A stretch of 57,806 bases of DNA from a virus. Taxonomy: Duplodnaviria; Caudoviricetes. The stretch lies in IMG/VR virus record IMGVR_UViG_3300029826_000002, positions 1 to 57,806 of that record. One strand, written 5' to 3'. Positions within the stretch are counted from its first letter, which is position 1. Each line of letters starts with the position of its first letter. A program made the translations under genes and the position numbers. Positions 1,423 through 32,119 of the stretch are shown here, piece after piece. Under the pieces are notes generated by a model that saw only the letters and a program-made list of their open reading frames with translations, ran no database searches and was not told the origin of the DNA.

Positions 1423-2154
1423 TTAATATACCAGTGTCGGTTTTTCTTTTATTTTACCTTTGAAATAATCAGGGTCTGGTGTTTTCCAATCCCGCTCCAT
1501 TGTGATATCCAAACACTCTTTCAGGCTTGCGTATTTTTTCTGGCACTTAATACAATCCCGCAGTAATCCATTAACGCCTTTTTCTGTTTTGTACTGGTCT
1601 GCTTTTTTCTTTCCCATTCTGTAATGGAAAAACTCTATTATTTTTTCCCGGTGTGCTTTAATGCCATCGTCGCATTTTTCGATTTGGTTTTTTAGGTGGG
1701 TTAATAGGTCGTCAAAAGAGGGGGTATATATATTATTTCCCTTCTTTCCCTTCTTTCCCTTCTTGTTTGTGGTTATTTGTTGGTTATCTGTTGGTTGATT
1801 GTTGGTTAGGTTGCTGGTTGAATTTTCTCCTTGGTTCTGGTAAGTGTCCCAATTTAAAACCGTAATTATGCTAAATTTGTTGGTTGTTTTGATGGTTAGA
1901 TTTTCCATTAAGCGCAGCGTTTGGAAACACGATCTAATGTTTTGGGGGGTTAAGCCGGTTTCCCTCGCCGCAGAGTCACGACCACAAACGAATTGCCCAG
2001 GCTCCAAAACAACCGGTTGATTACCTATAATCACGGTATGTTTTTTATAGCTTGCTTTCATTAAACACCACATCCATACCCTGAAAACCTTGCTATTTTC
2101 CCATATTGGAGATTGGAGTGTTTTCCTGTATAATTTAATATATCCGCTATCCAC
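1423..2154 (-). CDS. Phage replication initiator (lambda O / replisome-organiser-like)
   Basis: GYIKLYRK..W..WMWCLMKA..GQFVCGR wHTH-type N-terminus and N/Q/T-rich linker; directly upstream of the helicase; likely GTG start at 2154. Confidence 0.75.
   Translation of the reverse strand: MDSGYIKLYRKTLQSPIWENSKVFRVWMWCLMKASYKKHTVIIGNQPVVLEPGQFVCGRDSAARETGLTPQNIRSCFQTLRLMENLTIKTTNKFSIITVLNWDTYQNQGENSTSNLTNNQPTDNQQITTNKKGKKGKKGNNIYTPSFDDLLTHLKNQIEKCDDGIKAHREKIIEFFHYRMGKKKADQYKTEKGVNGLLRDCIKCQKKYASLKECLDITMERDWKTPDPDYFKGKIKEKPTLVY
1765..1900. repeat. Short TGGTT-containing repeats inside the initiator gene; candidate iteron origin
   Basis: ttggttatctg/ttggttgattg/ttggttaggttg/ctggttg in tandem, beside an AT-rich stretch. 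Confidence 0.5.
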
Positions 2155-2385
2155 GCTATATAAACTCCACCGTGCAAAACCATCTACCAAGGCTGTTAAC
2201 TGATGTGTGGACAATAACCGCATTGAGCCGTACAGCCTGACTTATGCAGTCCCACGGGCTTTCACCTATAACCATGCAATACCGTTTCATAACCCCTCCT
2301 AATGTTCCCTATATGGCTCATTAGGCCCGTTTATGGCCTATAACGTGCAATATTTTACCCATCGGTAATGTCGCATTTTGCGATA

Positions 2386-2598
2386 TCAAGGCAGGAGAGA
2401 ATAGATATCTATGCCTCGTTCTCCGCAAATATTGGTAAACTCTTCCCACAACTCCTCATAATCCCTTCCATGGTACTTGATCTGATCACGTATGTGCCCG
2501 TTAAACTCCCACACCACCAGGGCGAGGTCTTTAGCCTTGTTTGCAAGGTTGTATTCCACTTCATCGTCCGGTAGGTTAAATTCAAGAATTGCTTTCAT
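2386..2598 (-). CDS. Hypothetical phage protein (MKAILEFNLP..)
   Basis: ORF coupled to its neighbours. Confidence 0.6.
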   Translation of the reverse strand: MKAILEFNLPDDEVEYNLANKAKDLALVVWEFNGHIRDQIKYHGRDYEELWEEFTNICGERGIDIYSLLP

Positions 2599-2830
2599 CG
2601 TATTTACCAAGCATTTTGCGTGCTGTTTTTAAAATCAGTTCAAGCTCTTCGATATCAAAAACAAGTCTCTGCGTGCCGGTATCCGGGAACTGCTCAAGCA
2701 CGATATAGCCGCCACCAACCTCATCATCAATGCTAACATGAGTGGCACCGTAGCCGTATATCGGGTTTTCGTTATCCATATGTACAGATGATTTAATAAC
2801 CGTTGTTTTTAGTTTGAGTTTTTCAGACAT
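2582..2830 (-). CDS. Hypothetical protein
   Basis: ORF in the leftward operon. Confidence 0.6.
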   Translation of the reverse strand: MSEKLKLKTTVIKSSVHMDNENPIYGYGATHVSIDDEVGGGYIVLEQFPDTGTQRLVFDIEELELILKTARKMLGKYDESNS

Positions 2831-2833
2831 TTC

Positions 2834-3238
2834 TTATTCGCCTTCTTTGTAAAAGCGTTCCGTAATAAGACCGTCGATAATATTGTGCGCTACGTGCGAT
2901 TCACGCCTGATAGAATCTGCTGTTTTTGGGTCAACTTTGTTGAGTGTTAAGGAGATAATCGCACCTATAATTCCGCTCTCAATCACTTCATGCCGTGCAA
3001 TACGATCAATATCTGCCTTTTTGTTTCCAGATATATTTTCAATCCCGCTTGAATTTAGGGTTATCCAAACGCTTGCGCCGGTGTATGAATGGTAGGCTTC
3101 GGCGGCAGAATCATCATCCTCCATATCATCATCGAATATGGTGTAAAATTTCAGGTGGTTTAGGTTGAGTTTTTCCACGTAAAACCGAACCGCCTTTGTG
3201 AAATACTCAAAATCTTCTTTTTTAAGGTCGTGTGTCAT
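2834..3238 (-). CDS. Hypothetical protein with a degenerate zincin-like motif
   Basis: IARHEVIE..RESH; coupled to the upstream phosphoesterase. Confidence 0.5.
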   Translation of the reverse strand: MTHDLKKEDFEYFTKAVRFYVEKLNLNHLKFYTIFDDDMEDDDSAAEAYHSYTGASVWITLNSSGIENISGNKKADIDRIARHEVIESGIIGAIISLTLNKVDPKTADSIRRESHVAHNIIDGLITERFYKEGE

Positions 3239-22759: not shown

Positions 22760-25700
22760 TTAACTGGCCTTCAGTCTCCTTGCGATATCCCTCTTTGACG
22801 GTTTGAATGTCCGTTTAATGTACGTGTCAATGCTCTTGCTCGTTATCGGATTAAGGATGCCGAGCATATTATTTCGTTTAAGCCGTTGATTGTATTCGTA
22901 CACATCAGTCATTATGTCGGCCCATTCTTTCTTAGTTTTCTTGTTCTGCGGCTTTAGAACAAAATCCTTGATGCGCTCGTTAATCTTTGACCGGCGTTCC
23001 TGGTATTCCTTTTCGATATTCTTTTCTCGCCACAACTGGCCTTTCTTTGACGATAATTCAGCAGGGTTGAACGACAACGCCCGTAACCATGCGTCAAGTG
23101 CGCTTGATTTAAGCGGTTCATTTCCCCAATATACCGGCGTGTTTCTGTGGGTTGTAACCCCTTCTGTGCGTTCCCTGTAGGCTTTAATCGGTGCGGCAAA
23201 AGCGTTTGGCAGTAATCGTTCAAACGCCCTGTCAAGCTCACCTTGACTTAAATCACCAATACCGTACCCAATATCCTTAATCATAGAACCCGGAGCGCCA
23301 AGAATTTCAAATAGATCAGTCGGAATATCCGTAACATTGACTTGCAGCGAGCCTTTAAGGTCGAGTCCGAGAAGGCCGAACAAGCCCTGCTCTGTGAATT
23401 TGCCTGCGTTTTCTCCAGCGTTTTCATACATCCACCTATACAATGCTTCTTCTGGATCGTCCTCGTCTTTATCCCATAATTTCAGGGCAAGGTTTACCAT
23501 CTTCATCATGGCCGGTGTAACCATGCTGGCCGTTGTTCCGGCAAGGAGCGCCGGGGAAGCAATGAGCCATGATGCCGCCTTAATATTCTTTTTGTCCCAA
23601 CCAAGCTCTTTCAGGGTGGCAAGGTAGTTGTGCGTAAACGTCTTGAACACATAAGCCGATTTAAGCACCTGTCCACCGATACCGGAACCACGGGCCAGTT
23701 CTGGATAGTTCGGCTTACCGTACGTGCCGTGCGCCTTGTCTGACACCTCTTTGGCAAGCTCCATCTGCTTTTCAAAGGATAGTTCAGGGCGGGTCTTTTT
23801 AATGCCGTCATACGCCCCAAGGATTGTTGCAACACGGTTTATCTGCTCAGTTACCCCGAACATTGCCATTGACGCATCAATCAGCCGACCGTACCCACGC
23901 CCGAACTTACCCTTGAGCACGTTGACCGCTTCCATGTTGAATTGCGCCTTGTGCCAACCCTTATCATAAATCCGCTTTAACGCTTTCTGCGTGTCTTCAC
24001 TTACACTTCCGGGGTTCACCTTCCACGCCCCGTATTTCGTAACGGCTTTGGCTAACAGGTCAGGCGCACGGTGCAGGGGAATATCGGCGTATCCGTTCAT
24101 GGTGGCCGGTACGTTCGTTACCAATGCCGTCATATTCACCGCAGGAGCTGCCAGACGGAACCCAAGGTATTTCAGGACTGCTACACCCTTGACGGTTCCC
24201 ATAACCCTGTCTATGGCCTCATCGTTACGTAACATATCCTGCATATATTTGGTTGCGGATTCAAAGGCGTTCTTCTGCTTTGTAGCTGAAATTTTTTGTT
24301 CTTCCACATGGTCAAGGTAGTTATCATAGTTTATGTGGGCTTCACCGTAATGTCGCTTGCCGTCCGTGGTCTGATATCCTTCCTTTTTCATCCGGTCACG
24401 CCACTCAGCCCAGCTTTCCGTGGTTCCCTTCATGGCGTTTATCATCTTGATAGCCATGTATTTTTTAGCCTGTGCCGAAGCGGTGGATTGTCCTGCCCGT
24501 GCAATAGCTGTCAGGGGGTCTTCCTCGTACCCAGCCCATACGTTCTTTCCTGTCAACCGCTGCCTGTGGATCATGGCCGACCGTGCGCCACGCTCCTTGA
24601 TTGTGTTTGCTAACTGCTCCGCAAACTCAGCGGCAAAGAGCAATTCAATATCGGCACTGTCAATGCCCTTTTGTAAGAACAGGGCTTTGGTAAGTTTCTT
24701 TTCAAGCTCTTTGGTATCAGCACCCTTAAACCGGAACCGTCCACCGTATGTGTATGATTGCTTGCCCCTCTTAAAAAATTCTTCATACTTGCCGCCGTAA
24801 GCCTCAACGATTTCTCTGCTTTTACCCTTCTCGACAATTCCCTTTAGAATAACATCGTCACCGTCTTTTTCAAGCGTAATGCCAATATCTTTCAGGGTCT
24901 TGGTTCGTGGGCTATCCACACCCTCAAGGGCTTTGTCCACAAGCTCGTTGATGGCAATGTTCTGACCGGCAAGGGCAAACACCGATTCGGGCATACGTTC
25001 GGACATTGTGATGGGTGCCACGGTATACCCTTGTTTTTCGAGAGCCATCCTGCGAAATGACGCTGTTGCTTTGGTGTCCCGCATTTCGAGTATCGGCTGT
25101 GCGCCCTTCTTGGTTGCCCTGATAATCCACTTGCCCTGATTTCTTGTACGCGGGAAGTAGTGCCCCCGTAAATCACCCATCTCCGCAAGAGCCACTTTCA
25201 GGTCGATCTTGACCGAATTGCCAAGCTCATCCTTGTAAGCGATTGCCGGTTTCCTGCCCTCTTTCTCATATTTTTCTATCAGTTCTTGGATTGCCTCGTA
25301 GCGCATATTAAATATGTTGTGTGAGATAGACCGGAAGGACACAAGCCCTTCGACCATTGCGTCACTAAAACCCTTCTCTTTAACGTCCTCCGACTCACGA
25401 CTTACCGCCTCATTCCATATTTCGGTTTCGGCTTTTTTCCTGTCTGCCATATCGGTTTTGTCAAATGATATTTCTGAAATCTTTTCGTGTGTTAGTTTAG
25501 ATATGGCATAATATCCATTTTTCTTTTCAACAACTAGATGGTCTATGTATTTCCGGTCACCAGAAGATACTTCTTTTTCTTGCTCTTTTATAATACTTCC
25601 GAGCATACGGTATGCCGCATCCTCAGATGTTGCCTTTGCTGTTTCGGTTAATCGTGGTTTAAGCAAGTCAAACTTATCGTCTTTTTGCTTCACCCTATAT

Positions 25701-28700
25701 CCAACAGCGTCACGGTCACGGTTCAGCAAGTACGCCTGCAACCGCTTGTAGCTCATCTTGTCTTTCTTGCTCAAGCGTTTCAGGTTTTCGATATAGGAGA
25801 TTGTTTCACCGTCCTTATTCTTCCCGTGGAACAATATGTTTGAGTTGGTGTTCTTATCGTCTACCCAGCCCAGCCCAGCGTCATACATCAGTTTTAAACC
25901 GGGAACCTTTGCGCTGTAGTGCGACATGAGGTTTAACATCCGGTCGGCAAGGGTAATGTCCGGTTTGGGTAATTTGAAATCCTGCTCACGACCAAGTATG
26001 CATTTGAGAATTTTCGGGGATGATTCGTCGATGATTTTCTTCATCACCGGATCGTCGGGGCCGAACTTCTCTTTGTACATGGCACCGAGTTTCTTTAGCT
26101 CGTCAGCGGGATTGGTCTTTTCTTCGTACAGGATATCCGGGTTGTTCCCGTCCCATGTGCCTCTGTTGAATATGGATTTGATTTGGGTGGGTTTAAGAGC
26201 AACATATGTTTTATCCCTGAATGGGATGCCGCTTGGGATTGGAGTATTATAATAAGCGGCTTTGTATATAACCCCATCGTAACCGCTGTCGAGAAGTGTT
26301 TTTCTGGAGATATCTCCTCTTGCGCTATCCAAAATATTAGAATTTATAAATTCCCCGACAAAACCGTTTTGTTTACTATTACTATAACCGAAAAACGATT
26401 CTCCTTTTTTGCCCATCTTCTCCGCTATCTTCGATAACACCTCATATTCTTCTGTCCCTTTCTGTATAAGATTATTACCGGAAATATCTAGTGGGTTTTC
26501 TATTGCTAAATATACAGGATACACTCCCCCTGATGGCTCATCCGTTTCCTTATTGAAAGAAAAGCCAGACGCTATTTCTGCTGATTCCGAAAAATGCACA
26601 CCAAATGGGATTTGATTGTTTTTGTTGGGGGATTTTCCTGTTTTGAATGTCGTTTTTGTAGCGTCGGCATCACCCCTATACACCACCAGCGGCTCGCCAT
26701 CCTCGTCAACAACCTTGCTCTTGCCAAACCATTTCTTAAAGGCTGCGGTGGCTGTGTTGCGCTTTGTCTCGTTCAGGGGTTCTGTGCTATCTTCTCGCCC
26801 CTCCGCTTCCCGTATTGCGTCCAGCTTTTCCCCGTTGCGTTCCAGTAGGGCTATCTCGTCGAGGACGGCTTGATCCCATATGACGTAGTTATACGATCCT
26901 TCGCCCTTGCCCCTGCTCATGCCGTCAAGGTATCGGTTGCCGGGGATGCCGATGGAAGCGAGGTATTTGGAAGCGGCCTGATCGTTTCGGGAATGGTTCT
27001 TGATTGTTTTATAGATAGATTCACCCGTATTTTCATTGCCATATTCTTTATCGAACCATTTAATCGGGTTTGTTATATCGTCAAACCCCTTCCATTTGGC
27101 AATCTTTTTTATGGCCGGTTTTAGCGCCTTCTTCACATACTCGCTCTGCTCACTCAGCGGCTTATCCCAATCCAGCAGCTTCGGGATTACGGAGTCGGGG
27201 ATGTCGAGCTTGTAGAGGGAGCCACGAATATTTCTAGACTCTACTTTTTTACCGATGTATGGTTTTATCTGATCGTAACTCTTTACAGCATCCTCATATT
27301 TCTTTTTAGCAGCAGCAGAATCAGGGTGCTTCTCAAGCCATCTCCCTGTATATTCTTTTCTTTCTGTTAATTGATCAACTAGGTTACTAAACGGCAACCC
27401 TGAATGAGACACCCACCGTAAAATATCAGGTGGGCTTTTAACCTCTACCCCATCAACAAAAATACTAGGTTCATTAACATCAAGATAGTGTTGTGCAACA
27501 CTCTCCCCATCCGCACTATACCATCCCCATCCGTAAGCCTGCGCCCCCTCTCCCGTTCCTATCTTGTCCAGCCGTGGCCTGCCGTGCGGGAACCCCTTTT
27601 CAGGAGGCCAAACATGGGGCGTACCGTGCCATACCGTTTGGAGTAACTTGCTCTTAATATTCCTGCCACTCTCCTGCCCCCTCACATTCCCCTTCTCGAT
27701 CTTTCTCAGCACACCACGCTCAGTCAACTTGACTAATCCCACCAGAGAGTCCACAAAGTCTGCTACTTTCTGGAGGATTCGGCCTAACTTCGTCCCCCTG
27801 TACTGCTCTCGGTTAGCCAGATTGGCGCCTATCCACCTTGCCCTCGCTTCCCATCCTTCCCGTGTTTCCATGCCCGGACGCTTTCCTGTGGCTCTGCGGA
27901 CAGCCTCGTTAAGCACCATCTTATCGCCCTTGTTAATCAGGCCGATGTCCTCAAAGAAGTGGCTACCGATTTCGTGGAACACGGTTTCTAAATCGGAGGC
28001 TTTGGTGAATATGACTTCGTGGTTCTGGTATTGCGCTGTGCGTACTGCGCCGGTTGGGGATGTGCCTAAATTCAGCTTAACCTCGCCACCCGTGTCTGTC
28101 AGACCATTGATGGTCAGCACCTTGCCGGGAGCGAACTTCACCGCCACGCTTCCGTCATCGTTTATCTCTACGGACTTGCCTTTCATGAACGGGAGCTTTT
28201 TAAGCTGGGCTAGAGAGATGCCGGAAAAGTCGGTTACGGTGGGGGATTCTTCAAACCGGATATCGTCGCTGGACTTGTCAAATCGATCACTAAGGGGGAT
28301 GACATCGCCTGCTTTAGCCCTACCCTCTTTTACTGCGGCATCGCCCTTGGTATAGTAGGTGACGGGGTCGGCTGATTTGATTTGGGAGGGGGAAAGCGGA
28401 ACATAACTTTTCGGGCGAACATCCACACCGCCTTTTATGTTCGGTTCTGCACCCTCGTCTAAAATAAGAGAATCATATTCAGGGTGTGTTTCTTGCAACC
28501 ACTCTTCCAAATCAACAGAATCAGTCCAATCGGGTAATCCACGCTCTGACAAGGGCGTGCCATTTCCGTATTTACCTAAAAATTCGTCATTGAATATTTT
28601 TAATTCTTTAGCGTTACGAGTATCAAAGGCGTTTCCGAGACTTAAAAAAACCTCATATGTTCGCTTATCGGTCGCATCCTTTAGTCCCGATATCCCCATA

Positions 28701-31700
28701 CTAGAAGCGGTTGTTTCTTGATATCTGTCTGCGTATCTTTTGTCTTTACTAAAATGCGACAATGGATTAAAAACCGTAAAACCACCACGCCAAGTCCCAT
28801 GATACGCTATTGTATCATACCCCGCTTCCCTCGCCGCCTCGTCCACCATCCGCTGCAATTCTTCCCGGTTCGCTTCCGGGTCTTTGGCTAATTCCAGGTA
28901 TCGGGCATCACGGGAGGTGGGGCGCTCTTCGTAGTACGGCTTATCCCCAGGCTTATCCATCAACTCCATGCCTTCGGGGATTAGGTCGGGGTAGTCTTTC
29001 AGGACTTCTTTGGGGATGAACTTGCCTTCGGAGATGGCTTTGCGGATAGCCTCACGGTGCATCCCCTTTATATTAGATTTTTTCGTTCTTGTGGTTTCTT
29101 CTTTTAATAGTTCGCCATATGTTTTTCTCCAGATTGCATGGGGGCCGTCAGAATCCCATCGGCTATTCATGCCAGAATTATATTTTAAAATATGATTACG
29201 CAATTCATCCGGCAATGATTCCAAAACACGCATAGGTATTTTAGCATCACGGGGCAAATTGCTTATTTCATTATAGTATGTTTGCCTCCACGAGTTGATT
29301 TGCCCTTCGGGTGCTTTCGGATATTTCTCTAACTTCTCAGCCAAAAACTCATCAAGCGTCATTTCAGTAACGTTTTTTAGCCCTATAACATTCGTAATGT
29401 TATCGTTCTTTTTTTCGTTACCGTTCACCACTTCCGCTTTCTGCTCGGCCTTGGGGGCGGGTTGCTTGGATTCGGGTACTACTGTGGGTTCAGGCGCTTT
29501 CTTCGGCGCAAGTTTAGCCTTGGCGGTACGCTTCTTTAACGCCGCACGTAAACCGGCTAAATCCATCTTGGGGCTTTTGGGGGTGTCCGTAATCAGGTCT
29601 GATACGGTATCACGTTGCTTGTCTGTCAGGCTATCCACGTAGTCATAGTATGCCTGAGTAGATTGCCGCTTGTAGGGCTTTAACGTGGCAAGGTGGGATT
29701 CTCTTGGGGTCGCTTGCGGGGTTTCTTTGGTATCACCTGCAATTCCCTCAACGCCCTTCTCAACTCTTCCGGTTTGTCCTTCAGGTGATACAGTCCCAGC
29801 CTCTTCAGCCTGTTCTCTGTACTCATCGTTAAACCCTCCTTCTTCCTTTAGTGCTTCAACTTCAAGGTCGGTGTCCCGAATCCAAGCATCAACGGCGGTG
29901 AAATCCTTTTCGTCCTCGATCTCGTTTTCTTTTCGGTGTGCTTCAGCCGCTTTTCTGTATTTGTCAGGAGAAAATTGCCTAGCCGCAAAAGTAAGCCCTG
30001 TGCCTGGATTTCTCCCCTCTTTGGTGTGGGGTATGCTATCAAGGTTGTTGTCTTTAATGTACTGCTTAACCCGTGGTGCAATTCTGTCCAGAACATCATC
30101 AACCTGTTCCTCTGTTGCACCAACGACCGTGAACCCGAACTCATCACCGCCCTTTGTGGTGAATCCGATTTCCACACCCAGCTTTTCAAATTCTTCTCTG
30201 GCAATATCGGCCATTGCCTTAAAGTACGGGTCGGCTCCGGTCTGCCCGAATTTCTTATTAAGACCTCCAAGGTTGTATAAATCGCCCTCGACGTACACCA
30301 CCGGCACGTTGTTTTTTTCTGCTGTTTCGGCGGCGAACTCTGCAAGGCGTTTACTGGCATATTTCCCCTCCATCATTCCGGTTACGGGGTGATGGTTTAC
30401 TATCGAAACCCTCCTGTCACCAGCTTTCCGTTGTGCCAACCTTTTTTGCTGTTCTTCCTCAAATCGGTCGAGTATAGAAGGCGTTTCCTTGCCTGATTCG
30501 ATTGTCTCAGAATCGGCTACACCTGTCAAGCCTTTTTCGTCCGTAGCCACCGTATCGCTCTCAGGCGGCACGATCTCCGTTTCAGGCTGTGCTTGTACCG
30601 TATTGTCCGGTTGAATAACGTCTGCGGCCTCTGAGGAAGTAGGTGCGGGAACAACGGGGGAGGGGGAGGTGGGGGGAGGGGTTTCCGTTGCTCCACGCAC
30701 GCTATCTTGCCTGATGGTATCCGCAAATGCCTGACGTATTTCGGGGCTTACATTCTCGTTGTTGAGGAAGCCGCTTACAACTTTGTTGACCTTCTTTTGA
30801 TCGCCTTTATCTATCGCCTTTTGAAACTGATTGCGGAACTTGGCTATTTCGAGCTTTTCTTTTTCCGGTGAAACGGGCACCTCTTCCTGCTTACCACCAA
30901 CCAAATCAATATCATCACCCACAATCACCGGCTGACCGTTCGCCCGTGCTTTCTCGGCGTGTTCCTTAAAGCTCTTGGCAAGCCCCTTATCTATCTTTTC
31001 AACCGAACTGGCCACGGTGTTTACAACTGCGTTAAATTTTTCATCAGATGATTTCGGGTCGGAAAGCGTGTCAACAATATCTTTTCTGGTCTGGTAATTA
31101 TAGGCAGTACCGGCACCGCCAAAAAGCAAAGACATGAATATGGTCGGCCCGATGATATCAAGAACGTTCTCTTTTATGCTTCCCGCATCAACTCCGTATT
31201 TATTTGAAAAGTACGTTTGTGAAGCCGCCTGTCCTGCTTCCGTGGCAACCTCACCAAAAATGGTTTTACCTATGCTCTTAATCGCTTCTGCTGGGCCTAG
31301 CTTGGATGCTATTGATTTTACAATACTGTTTTTTATCGGCTTAGATGCGACACCAAACAGTTTCAGGGGGATGGCATCTTGCACAACCTCTCCACCGGTT
31401 TCAATAATACCCTCGATATTGGCGAGTTTAAAAGCGGTTTCCTTGTCCACCCCCTGCCGGATTGCTTCACGGTATTTATCTTCTGCCGAACCACCGTAAA
31501 AAAGACCACCAAGGGTAGCAAACCCTGCGGCAACACCAGCAGGGCCACCAGTAGCAAGCCCAGCAATAAGCGGTACGGCTGACTGTACGGCGTTTTCCGG
31601 CCCTGTAGCCATCATGTGCATAGGAGAGTACCACGGGGCGTTCTTTGCCTTCTCAGACATCCCTATGACCGGTTCAAGGCGTTTCTGCTGAGTATCACCA

Positions 31701-32119
31701 AAACCCTCTACGGCCTGCCCTGCACCCTGCAACAGCTTCCTTGCGTAGTCCTGAATGGGGTTCTCGAACCCTTTCGGCGTCAACATCTCATCCGAAAACC
31801 GTTTCAAGAATTGCATGGCCTTACCGGTCTGTTGCGGAATTACCGTATTCCACCCACGGGAGAAAGACTTGGCACCCTCTTTGGCTAAATCCGGCCCCTC
31901 GGTTGCGATATAACCAGCACCCTTCTGAGCCACCATTTTTGTAAAGTCGGCGGCATCAGACACGAACGAGCTTTCCGGCATCCTAAAGTTTGTGTGGCGA
32001 TCCGGTATCTGCTCTTCCTGCGGTGCCTGCTCAAACGGATTATAGTCCACCGGTGTCAGCTTCGCCGTGCTGGTTTGTGTTTCAAATGGGTTGTGGTTTA
32101 CCGGAACAAGAATTGCCAT
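22760..32119 (-). CDS. Giant polyvalent internal virion/ejection protein (GGDEF-like, three ART-like, zincin-like modules)
   Basis: 3119 aa, following the ejection genes; KGGDEF at aa 656-661; YHGT, WHGT and YRGD ART-type modules; HEIGSH; helical C-terminal region. Confidence 0.8.
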   Translation of the reverse strand: MAILVPVNHNPFETQTSTAKLTPVDYNPFEQAPQEEQIPDRHTNFRMPESSFVSDAADFTKMVAQKGAGYIATEGPDLAKEGAKSFSRGWNTVIPQQTGKAMQFLKRFSDEMLTPKGFENPIQDYARKLLQGAGQAVEGFGDTQQKRLEPVIGMSEKAKNAPWYSPMHMMATGPENAVQSAVPLIAGLATGGPAGVAAGFATLGGLFYGGSAEDKYREAIRQGVDKETAFKLANIEGIIETGGEVVQDAIPLKLFGVASKPIKNSIVKSIASKLGPAEAIKSIGKTIFGEVATEAGQAASQTYFSNKYGVDAGSIKENVLDIIGPTIFMSLLFGGAGTAYNYQTRKDIVDTLSDPKSSDEKFNAVVNTVASSVEKIDKGLAKSFKEHAEKARANGQPVIVGDDIDLVGGKQEEVPVSPEKEKLEIAKFRNQFQKAIDKGDQKKVNKVVSGFLNNENVSPEIRQAFADTIRQDSVRGATETPPPTSPSPVVPAPTSSEAADVIQPDNTVQAQPETEIVPPESDTVATDEKGLTGVADSETIESGKETPSILDRFEEEQQKRLAQRKAGDRRVSIVNHHPVTGMMEGKYASKRLAEFAAETAEKNNVPVVYVEGDLYNLGGLNKKFGQTGADPYFKAMADIAREEFEKLGVEIGFTTKGGDEFGFTVVGATEEQVDDVLDRIAPRVKQYIKDNNLDSIPHTKEGRNPGTGLTFAARQFSPDKYRKAAEAHRKENEIEDEKDFTAVDAWIRDTDLEVEALKEEGGFNDEYREQAEEAGTVSPEGQTGRVEKGVEGIAGDTKETPQATPRESHLATLKPYKRQSTQAYYDYVDSLTDKQRDTVSDLITDTPKSPKMDLAGLRAALKKRTAKAKLAPKKAPEPTVVPESKQPAPKAEQKAEVVNGNEKKNDNITNVIGLKNVTEMTLDEFLAEKLEKYPKAPEGQINSWRQTYYNEISNLPRDAKIPMRVLESLPDELRNHILKYNSGMNSRWDSDGPHAIWRKTYGELLKEETTRTKKSNIKGMHREAIRKAISEGKFIPKEVLKDYPDLIPEGMELMDKPGDKPYYEERPTSRDARYLELAKDPEANREELQRMVDEAAREAGYDTIAYHGTWRGGFTVFNPLSHFSKDKRYADRYQETTASSMGISGLKDATDKRTYEVFLSLGNAFDTRNAKELKIFNDEFLGKYGNGTPLSERGLPDWTDSVDLEEWLQETHPEYDSLILDEGAEPNIKGGVDVRPKSYVPLSPSQIKSADPVTYYTKGDAAVKEGRAKAGDVIPLSDRFDKSSDDIRFEESPTVTDFSGISLAQLKKLPFMKGKSVEINDDGSVAVKFAPGKVLTINGLTDTGGEVKLNLGTSPTGAVRTAQYQNHEVIFTKASDLETVFHEIGSHFFEDIGLINKGDKMVLNEAVRRATGKRPGMETREGWEARARWIGANLANREQYRGTKLGRILQKVADFVDSLVGLVKLTERGVLRKIEKGNVRGQESGRNIKSKLLQTVWHGTPHVWPPEKGFPHGRPRLDKIGTGEGAQAYGWGWYSADGESVAQHYLDVNEPSIFVDGVEVKSPPDILRWVSHSGLPFSNLVDQLTERKEYTGRWLEKHPDSAAAKKKYEDAVKSYDQIKPYIGKKVESRNIRGSLYKLDIPDSVIPKLLDWDKPLSEQSEYVKKALKPAIKKIAKWKGFDDITNPIKWFDKEYGNENTGESIYKTIKNHSRNDQAASKYLASIGIPGNRYLDGMSRGKGEGSYNYVIWDQAVLDEIALLERNGEKLDAIREAEGREDSTEPLNETKRNTATAAFKKWFGKSKVVDEDGEPLVVYRGDADATKTTFKTGKSPNKNNQIPFGVHFSESAEIASGFSFNKETDEPSGGVYPVYLAIENPLDISGNNLIQKGTEEYEVLSKIAEKMGKKGESFFGYSNSKQNGFVGEFINSNILDSARGDISRKTLLDSGYDGVIYKAAYYNTPIPSGIPFRDKTYVALKPTQIKSIFNRGTWDGNNPDILYEEKTNPADELKKLGAMYKEKFGPDDPVMKKIIDESSPKILKCILGREQDFKLPKPDITLADRMLNLMSHYSAKVPGLKLMYDAGLGWVDDKNTNSNILFHGKNKDGETISYIENLKRLSKKDKMSYKRLQAYLLNRDRDAVGYRVKQKDDKFDLLKPRLTETAKATSEDAAYRMLGSIIKEQEKEVSSGDRKYIDHLVVEKKNGYYAISKLTHEKISEISFDKTDMADRKKAETEIWNEAVSRESEDVKEKGFSDAMVEGLVSFRSISHNIFNMRYEAIQELIEKYEKEGRKPAIAYKDELGNSVKIDLKVALAEMGDLRGHYFPRTRNQGKWIIRATKKGAQPILEMRDTKATASFRRMALEKQGYTVAPITMSERMPESVFALAGQNIAINELVDKALEGVDSPRTKTLKDIGITLEKDGDDVILKGIVEKGKSREIVEAYGGKYEEFFKRGKQSYTYGGRFRFKGADTKELEKKLTKALFLQKGIDSADIELLFAAEFAEQLANTIKERGARSAMIHRQRLTGKNVWAGYEEDPLTAIARAGQSTASAQAKKYMAIKMINAMKGTTESWAEWRDRMKKEGYQTTDGKRHYGEAHINYDNYLDHVEEQKISATKQKNAFESATKYMQDMLRNDEAIDRVMGTVKGVAVLKYLGFRLAAPAVNMTALVTNVPATMNGYADIPLHRAPDLLAKAVTKYGAWKVNPGSVSEDTQKALKRIYDKGWHKAQFNMEAVNVLKGKFGRGYGRLIDASMAMFGVTEQINRVATILGAYDGIKKTRPELSFEKQMELAKEVSDKAHGTYGKPNYPELARGSGIGGQVLKSAYVFKTFTHNYLATLKELGWDKKNIKAASWLIASPALLAGTTASMVTPAMMKMVNLALKLWDKDEDDPEEALYRWMYENAGENAGKFTEQGLFGLLGLDLKGSLQVNVTDIPTDLFEILGAPGSMIKDIGYGIGDLSQGELDRAFERLLPNAFAAPIKAYRERTEGVTTHRNTPVYWGNEPLKSSALDAWLRALSFNPAELSSKKGQLWREKNIEKEYQERRSKINERIKDFVLKPQNKKTKKEWADIMTDVYEYNQRLKRNNMLGILNPITSKSIDTYIKRTFKPSKRDIARRLKAS

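Follow-up and report, generated by a model that had tools for sequence, protein, structure and literature searches.

The closest described relatives of the element reported here are GGDEF domains found computationally by Iyer et al. (2017; PMC5512222) in the polyvalent proteins of phages and prophages, where the article text calls the domain "not very widespread" and suggests interference with nucleotide signals, and the idea of a cyclase delivered by a phage has been a prediction since then. Giant polyvalent proteins are also encoded by Bcep22-like and 933W-like podophages, namely Bcep22 (gp75), JC1 (gp69) and phi24B (gp47), their genes closing the structural module ahead of the lysis genes. 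Here we describe a GGDEF domain in P0001, a 3119-amino acid (aa) protein encoded on the minus strand (22760..32119, from the open reading frame (ORF) list and its translation) of a 57,806-bp complete virus record of an uncultured short-tailed phage (IMG/VR record IMGVR_UViG_3300029826_000002; CheckV completeness 100%), the whole of which is referred to as the window. The initial annotation had pointed to a divergent GGDEF domain within a probably injected virion protein, and we find that residues 566-760 are a genuine but modified GGDEF domain, belonging to a coherent subfamily found mostly in giant proteins of phages and prophages and followed directly by a small overprinted gene conserved in its own frame. 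The reading that we favour, tentatively and at slightly less than an even chance, is that this is a feedback-free, paired cyclase which would make cyclic di-GMP (c-di-GMP), be delivered with the phage DNA and have a small binding partner. As a domain in a giant protein it is a member of an already catalogued and common polyvalent design, while the subfamily signature and the coupled hidden gene are new here.

The domain (29840..30424, minus strand) is supported by PDB profile search, AlphaFold2 modelling, Foldseek and VIA-align, and its fold and homology are settled. The AlphaFold2 model (predicted local distance difference test (pLDDT) 92.7, predicted template modelling score 0.85) was matched by Foldseek to GGDEF domains for every match listed, at a probability of 1.00. 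VIA-align superposed it upon GcbC (5euh_A) with a Z score of 18.0 and a root-mean-square deviation (rmsd) of 2.1 Å over 153/164 residues, upon WspR with a Z score of 17.6, and upon residues 286-444 of PleD (2v0n_A) with a Z score of 16.4 and an rmsd of 2.9 Å over 154 residues, bearing out the GGDEF fold in the hidden Markov model (HMM) and structure comparison with PleD and WspR that the initial annotation had proposed. The whole-domain fold is thus shared with PleD, WspR, GcbC and T. maritima TM1788 (2v0n, 3i5c, 5euh and 4urs; Z 16.4-18.0), although sequence identity to these canonical cyclases is only 12-18%. A profile of 29 family members searched against the PDB gave 42 sequences at E ≤ 0.01, all of them GGDEF-domain proteins (best 2.2e-8; PleD 3.6e-3), and 24 of the 29 members individually match Pfam PF00990 (best 8.1e-17), with the close relatives P0004 and P0007 exceeding its cut-off. 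The window sequence by itself matched several NCBIfam cyclase models (E 4e-6 to 0.02) and the T. maritima cyclase 4urs (E 0.004). The domain therefore has a sequence-model match (via the family profile), the whole-domain palm fold and a GGDEF loop with its two acids, and a chance motif is ruled out by the family profile against the PDB together with the structural superposition. The strings HPVTGMM, VVYVEGDLYNLGGLNKKFGQTGAD and TKGGDEFGF, on which the domain had first been recognised, are all present within aa 552-779, and the GGDEF signature loop, read from the sequence, does lie at 30137..30151 (minus strand), being aa 657-661 after Thr655-Lys656.

At E ≤ 0.001 an exhaustive HMMER search gave 438 cluster representatives, 199 of them also reaching E ≤ 1e-10, and residues were counted over 190 domains from 151 family proteins (stretches of at least 25 bits were kept; numbering is that of the window protein). 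The hallmarks of the subfamily are D-x-x-N-L-G-G-L-N, GGDE and IPHxK, with no RxxD site. The first of these lies in the window at aa 609-630 (YVEGDLYNLGGLNKKFGQTGAD; 30230..30295, minus strand), which carries Asp613, Asn616-Leu-Gly-Gly, Asn621 and Asp630, as seen from the columns of the 190 domains and from alignment to 4urs (DLAGFKAINDTYGHLSGD); in this alignment Asp613, Asn621 and Asp630 fall on its D, N and D while Gly618 falls on the Lys of "FK". We take Asp613 to be the metal-binding Asp and Asn621 and Asp630 to be the readers of guanine or another base, following the roles given in the PleD literature. Across the family, position 613 is Asp in 172/190 domains, 616 is Asn in 187/190, 618 and 619 are Gly in 148/190 and 184/190, and 621 is Asn in 184/190, while position 630 is divided between Asn (102/190) and Asp (82/190), a split by which the subfamily may be divided into two product specificities. 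The Gly-Gly-Asp-Glu of positions 657-660 is kept in 174/184, 188/190, 166/190 and 170/190 respectively. The third hallmark, IPHTK in the window (aa 696-700; 30020..30034, minus strand), was identified as family-specific from the column counts, with His698 in 166/190 and Lys700 in 178/190, and is followed by Gly706 (186/188) and Gly708 (164/188). The IPHxK motif is not known to have a place in the canonical GGDEF pattern.

Compared to canonical cyclases, then, the window domain keeps a DxLTG-type start, the metal Asp, the Asn/Asp base readers, the GGDEF loop and the Lys of the last helix (Lys758, which fits a loose motif in 115/162 domains), all of the kept active-site residues named in the initial annotation being confirmed. 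It differs from them in having Gly618 rather than Lys after the metal Asp, an effectively invariant Asn616, the IPHxK...GxG motif, an insertion of around 20 residues ahead of the last helix, and no RxxD site, which in canonical cyclases is an inhibitory site five residues ahead of GGDEF, regulatory and not obligatory; this motif occurs in 3/162 family domains, and its reported absence from the window is confirmed, with none in the 14 residues preceding GGDEF. Three replacements had also been put forward, for the Lys of "FK", the His of "GH" and the Arg before the loop, and these are indeed present as Gly618, Gln626 and Thr655, leaving two residues expected of an active cyclase, the Lys of "FK" and the Arg two residues ahead of GGDEF, missing. 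The loss of the Lys is real, but it is not a defect private to this protein, since Gly at 618 is a signature of the whole family. The window does depart from its own family at two positions, His577 (Asp in 163/184) and Thr655 (Arg in 170/190), and these covary: Asp-Arg is found in 159/190 domains, while His577 is found with His (7), Thr (4) or Gln (1), a total of 12. This swap is common to the nearest relatives of the window domain, and the covariation suggests that His577/Thr655 may be a replaced structural contact and not a catalytic loss.

Two tandem copies of the domain are present in 39/151 family proteins, the first copy being more often degenerate at GGDE, and this fits a domain working as a pair. 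Among 22 sampled giant family members, PF00990 was matched at E ≤ 1e-5 in 13, and the co-resident domains were LPD38 (2), LPD39, MuF_C with ART-PolyVal, RadC (2), Fic and DUF7178. The region shared by P0001 and its family member P0005 is confined to aa 544-790 (51% identity), whereas modules at the two ends of P0001 are common to giant proteins of other loci (L003 and L004 in our numbering), so the GGDEF region behaves as a movable cassette. The subfamily was also seen on genome contigs (L030-L034 and L036) of Nocardia, Variovorax and a Chiayiivirga genome assembly, often in tandem with the nested ORF described below between the copies; these carriers are presumably prophages. The proteins of Iyer et al. 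(PMC5512222) share with P0001 a GGDEF domain within a giant multi-enzyme phage protein, ART domains, predicted injection with the DNA and suggested interference with, or use of, cyclic nucleotides, while the subfamily here amounts to the 438 representatives, with its own signature and an overprinted small gene; the latter is unmentioned in the text of that article, whose supplements may list members of the subfamily. Among papers on GGDEF domains in polyvalent proteins, most of them represented by their bibliographic listing, no experimental test was found and no overprinted gene is reported.

Directly behind the domain, an ORF of 48 aa plus a stop codon (MSTENRLKRLGLYHLKDKPEEL...) lies in the +1 frame (29680..29826, minus strand), overlapping main-frame codons 765-813 and starting 7 codons past Lys758. 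An AAGGAGG Shine-Dalgarno-like sequence (29835..29841, minus strand) stands 8 nt ahead of the nested ATG, upon the codons that follow Lys758 of the last helix. The nested ORF was found in 22 of the 25 loci with DNA beyond the domain (the window, L003-L006, L016-L020, L022-L028, L031-L033, L035 and L036), a proportion that does not come from a random sample because the loci were retrieved by family-specific patterns and include near-duplicates (L018 and L032); L015, L021 and L030 end too early to be evaluated. L036 has a variant start and was excluded from the statistics, which are for the other 21 loci. Over the first 17 codons these have a mean amino-acid identity of 0.526 when read in the nested frame, while the main frame gives 0.225 and the third frame 0.244; at the nucleotide level, identity is 0.50, 0.67 and 0.42 at the first, second and third nested codon positions. 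All 21 begin with ATG-Ser, 17 of them with a Shine-Dalgarno-like sequence within 18 nt, and the main frame continues through the nested ORF in 20. In the remaining locus, L020, the GGDEF ORF stops 4 codons past the nested ATG and the small gene is a separate ORF of 161 aa. Four viral loci show the same arrangement as the window, and there the differences within the RLKRLGL stretch are synonymous solely in the +1 frame, while the main frame beneath the nested ORF is a poorly conserved linker. The nested gene is thus conserved in its own frame. Where four tandem-domain loci carry it, it lies behind the first copy only. The gene callers of other groups had predicted twelve proteins of this kind, all unnamed, with lengths of 49-116 aa and E values of 5e-18 to 0.025. 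A strict DNA pattern for the nested start gave 7 matches in viral contigs, 3 of them on loci already in the set and 4 by chance, these four having neither a Shine-Dalgarno sequence nor an upstream GGDEF domain. A 170-aa ATG ORF was also noted in the +1 frame across the GGDEF domain itself (29848..30360, minus strand), with a Ser/Thr/Arg-rich composition that looks like an out-of-frame reading.

The spanin gene Rz1 is embedded within Rz, and embedded and separated arrangements of this pair both exist. The nested gene resembles Rz1 in its small size, in having start signals of its own and in lying entirely within a larger gene in the +1 frame, with L020 as the separated form. The likeness is one of layout only: the nested peptide of the window has no Cys and is not a lipoprotein, and its gene is tied to the cyclase cassette and not to lysis. 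It has, then, the marks of an embedded gene (another frame, its own start signals and conservation in its own frame) while lacking the lipoprotein signal of a spanin.

The nested peptide was predicted by AlphaFold2 to form two helices (residues 3-10 and 19-31; pLDDT 75.9). Eight such peptides gave no consistent Pfam match and a profile search of the PDB had no match with E below 1, leaving a candidate MshEN-type c-di-GMP-binding motif (RLG..L...EEL in the peptide) unsupported by either. A complex prediction of the domain with the nested peptide scored 0.57 (0.57, 0.58 and 0.57 in separate runs) compared to 0.02 for the best control, with a partner pLDDT of 70-72 and contacts that agree by at least 65% between runs. 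This lends weak support to the idea that the 48-aa product may bind the GGDEF domain. The mark used for this score was reached by 58/80 solved complexes and 2/110 mismatched pairs.

Outside the domain, P0001 matches Pfam ART-PolyVal (PF18760) at 78.7 bits (cut-off 31.2) over two stretches, the better-scoring of which is aa 1805-1985 (26165..26707, minus strand). A GGDEF domain and two ART-PolyVal stretches, the latter a class-specific domain, are therefore found within one phage polypeptide of 3119 aa, and the host protein of the GGDEF domain is a polyvalent protein within a structural module. The minus-strand gene order is small and large terminase, portal, major head protein, a tail-fibre-assembly-like gene, the giant gene and endolysin, and the head proteins of Bcep22-like podophages, PBC5, Atu_ph08 and others have 30-36% identity to that of the window. 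The gene order of Bcep22 matches that of the window and ends in the 4602-aa gp75 ahead of the lysis genes; the cargo of gp75 is SLT, methylase, SNF2 helicase, LPD3 and LPD38 domains, in contrast to the GGDEF and two ART-PolyVal stretches of P0001. The homologue of gp75 in JC1, gp69, is reported in section 3.8 of PMC9144972 to have been found in CsCl-purified virions, and the 2811-aa polyvalent protein gp47 of phi24B is described as abundant in virion proteomics and is proposed as an ejection protein (bioRxiv 10.64898/2026.04.10.717836). All four of the other viral contigs, taken from IMG/VR, have genes for tail fibre, tail or internal virion proteins upstream of the ORF that bears the GGDEF domain; these ORFs are of 3301, at least 4394, at least 4270 and 2556 aa. 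From its genome position, and by analogy with the virion proteomics of other giant proteins, P0001 would be carried in the virion and enter the cell along with the DNA.

The favoured reading can be set out as a series of steps. The domain keeps the residues for binding Mg-GTP (Asp613, Asp659-Glu660, Asn621 and Asp630), and two copies would pair to make c-di-GMP without product inhibition, c-di-GMP being the expected product because the window has the guanine-reading Asp630. The giant protein would be packed in the head and leave with the DNA, so that the enzyme could act in the newly infected cell ahead of phage gene expression. The domain travels as a cassette with the small +1-frame gene directly behind it, and the 48-aa product may bind the domain, either as an inhibitor that silences the enzyme in the producing cell or as a helper.

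Several observations weigh against this reading. As to catalysis, the window sequence alone scores 18.8 bits against PF00990, below the cut-off of 23.8; the family-wide change of Lys to Gly, together with the change of Arg to Thr in the window, may mean that the chemistry differs or is lost; and the window protein has a single GGDEF copy, with neither a dimerising module beside it nor a sensory partner domain of the kind present in canonical cyclases being recognised. As to delivery, P0001 has zero BLASTP similarity to Bcep22 gp75, so the case for its presence in virions is one of position and class, not of orthology, and tblastn of 50,697 deposited phage records with the domain as query gave zero matches (as did the C-terminal 999 aa of P0001), so that existing virion proteomes do not apply directly. 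As to the partner, the nested ORF is absent from L014, L029 and L034 despite their intact GGDE, and no link was seen in the evaluable loci between its presence and an intact GGDE; 8 of the 22 nested ORFs score 5.4 bits or less with a five-sequence HMM and were accepted by frame, position and the pattern ATG-Ser...Arg6..Arg9.Gly11; and the complex score of 0.57 sits in a band (0.60 or less, which holds 7 of the 80 solved complexes and both of the passing mismatches) in which a pass is more likely to be false than true, save where there was good reason to expect the pairing in advance.

The changed residues around the metal site could instead reflect an active domain with another product, such as cGAMP, c-di-AMP or a linear dinucleotide, or nucleotidyl transfer to another acceptor, any of which could jam or feed nucleotide-based immunity. 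This would suit the rebuilt phosphate loop, in which Asn616-Leu-Gly-Gly replaces x-Phe-Lys-x and whose Asn616, Gly618 and Gly619 are so widely conserved, as it would the division of position 630 between Asn and Asp. Hypr GGDEF enzymes are able to use ATP by virtue of a Ser at the base-reading position. The interference with nucleotide signals suggested in the text of Iyer et al. (PMC5512222) would also be in keeping with such a product. The window domain itself, however, has the guanine-reading pair of Asp630 and Asn621, and the geometry of its active site overall superposes on cyclases bound to GTP and c-di-GMP, so we consider another product to be unlikely.

The same residues could also belong to a catalytically dead nucleotide binder, a sensor of GTP or c-di-GMP or a structural module controlling neighbouring enzymes or ejection, and we find this just as doubtful. 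The canonical Lys is lost, in the window protein the Arg ahead of GGDEF is lost as well and the Pfam score is sub-threshold, and the structural and profile searches also matched degenerate GGDEF receptors such as FimX and LapD. Such receptors usually lose the metal and catalytic acids, whereas in this family these are kept in 166-172 of 190 domains; there is no RxxD site by which c-di-GMP could be bound, and a compensating change at position 577 accompanies the loss of the Arg.

Least probable of the three is that the domain acts in the phage-producing cell and not after injection, for example through a late rise in c-di-GMP altering the envelope, matrix or superinfection, with the giant protein unpackaged or packaged purely for structural reasons, for, although the virion evidence comes from the giant proteins of other phages and those of Bcep22 and JC1 have no sequence similarity to P0001, the gene lies inside the late structural block, giant polyvalent proteins at the equivalent position are found in the virions of two related phage groups, and the presence of a partner or inhibitor gene alongside would perhaps be easier to understand if the enzyme had to be restrained during phage production.

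Returning to the delivered, paired cyclase, a bolder extension of it, which we put forward as speculative and think improbable rather than otherwise, is that the GGDEF domain and overprinted gene form a self-contained effector-partner cassette, similar to a toxin and its immunity gene, shuffled among otherwise unrelated giant virion proteins; the partner would bind the cyclase and silence or escort it in the producer, and once injected into the next host the cyclase, free of feedback, would fill that cell with cyclic dinucleotide. If the domain is active and delivered, phages could rewrite the second-messenger pool of the host within seconds of infection and without transcription. Were the 48-aa peptide to bind a cyclase that lacks feedback control, it would naturally serve to regulate c-di-GMP synthesis, and would show that a domain cassette within a polyvalent protein can bring along a hidden partner gene of its own, of a kind missed by standard gene calling.

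Of the end modules of P0001, the N-terminal one (aa 162-407; 30899..31636, minus strand) is common to the giant GGDEF-bearing ORF of L003 (BLASTP E 2e-13) and contains a match to phrog_14422 at aa 176-268, and the C-terminal one (aa 2624-3115; 22775..24250, minus strand) is common to the giant ORFs of L003 and L004 (BLASTP E 5e-25 and 5e-27). In the ESM Atlas both ends matched unnamed viral clusters only, with LPD38 and LPD22 as weak leads; the clusters nearest to the C-terminal module were viral with a score of 0.98, which is a lead only. Between these modules, aa 1500-1790 (26750-27622, minus strand; WHGTPHVW..., GWGWY) are 32% identical to the giant ORF of L004, and Pfam and PDB searches of this region were without a significant match. 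An HEIGSH sequence (HExxH) was noted near aa 1381-1386 (about 27960-27980, minus strand, the position being approximate), which might mark a zincin-like processing peptidase as described for polyvalent proteins, although Pfam and the PDB do not support a zincin and a PDB search of aa 1290-1500 around it gave nothing significant.

Positions 57708-57806 of the window repeat positions 1-99 at 98/99 bases. The genome is probably circular or terminally redundant, despite the linear class given to the ends of the record by IMG/VR. In L004 a reverse transcriptase gene (2059-3063, plus strand; phrog_1423, E 2e-108) lies among the tail genes, upstream of the giant GGDEF-bearing ORF, and this may belong to a diversity-generating retroelement.

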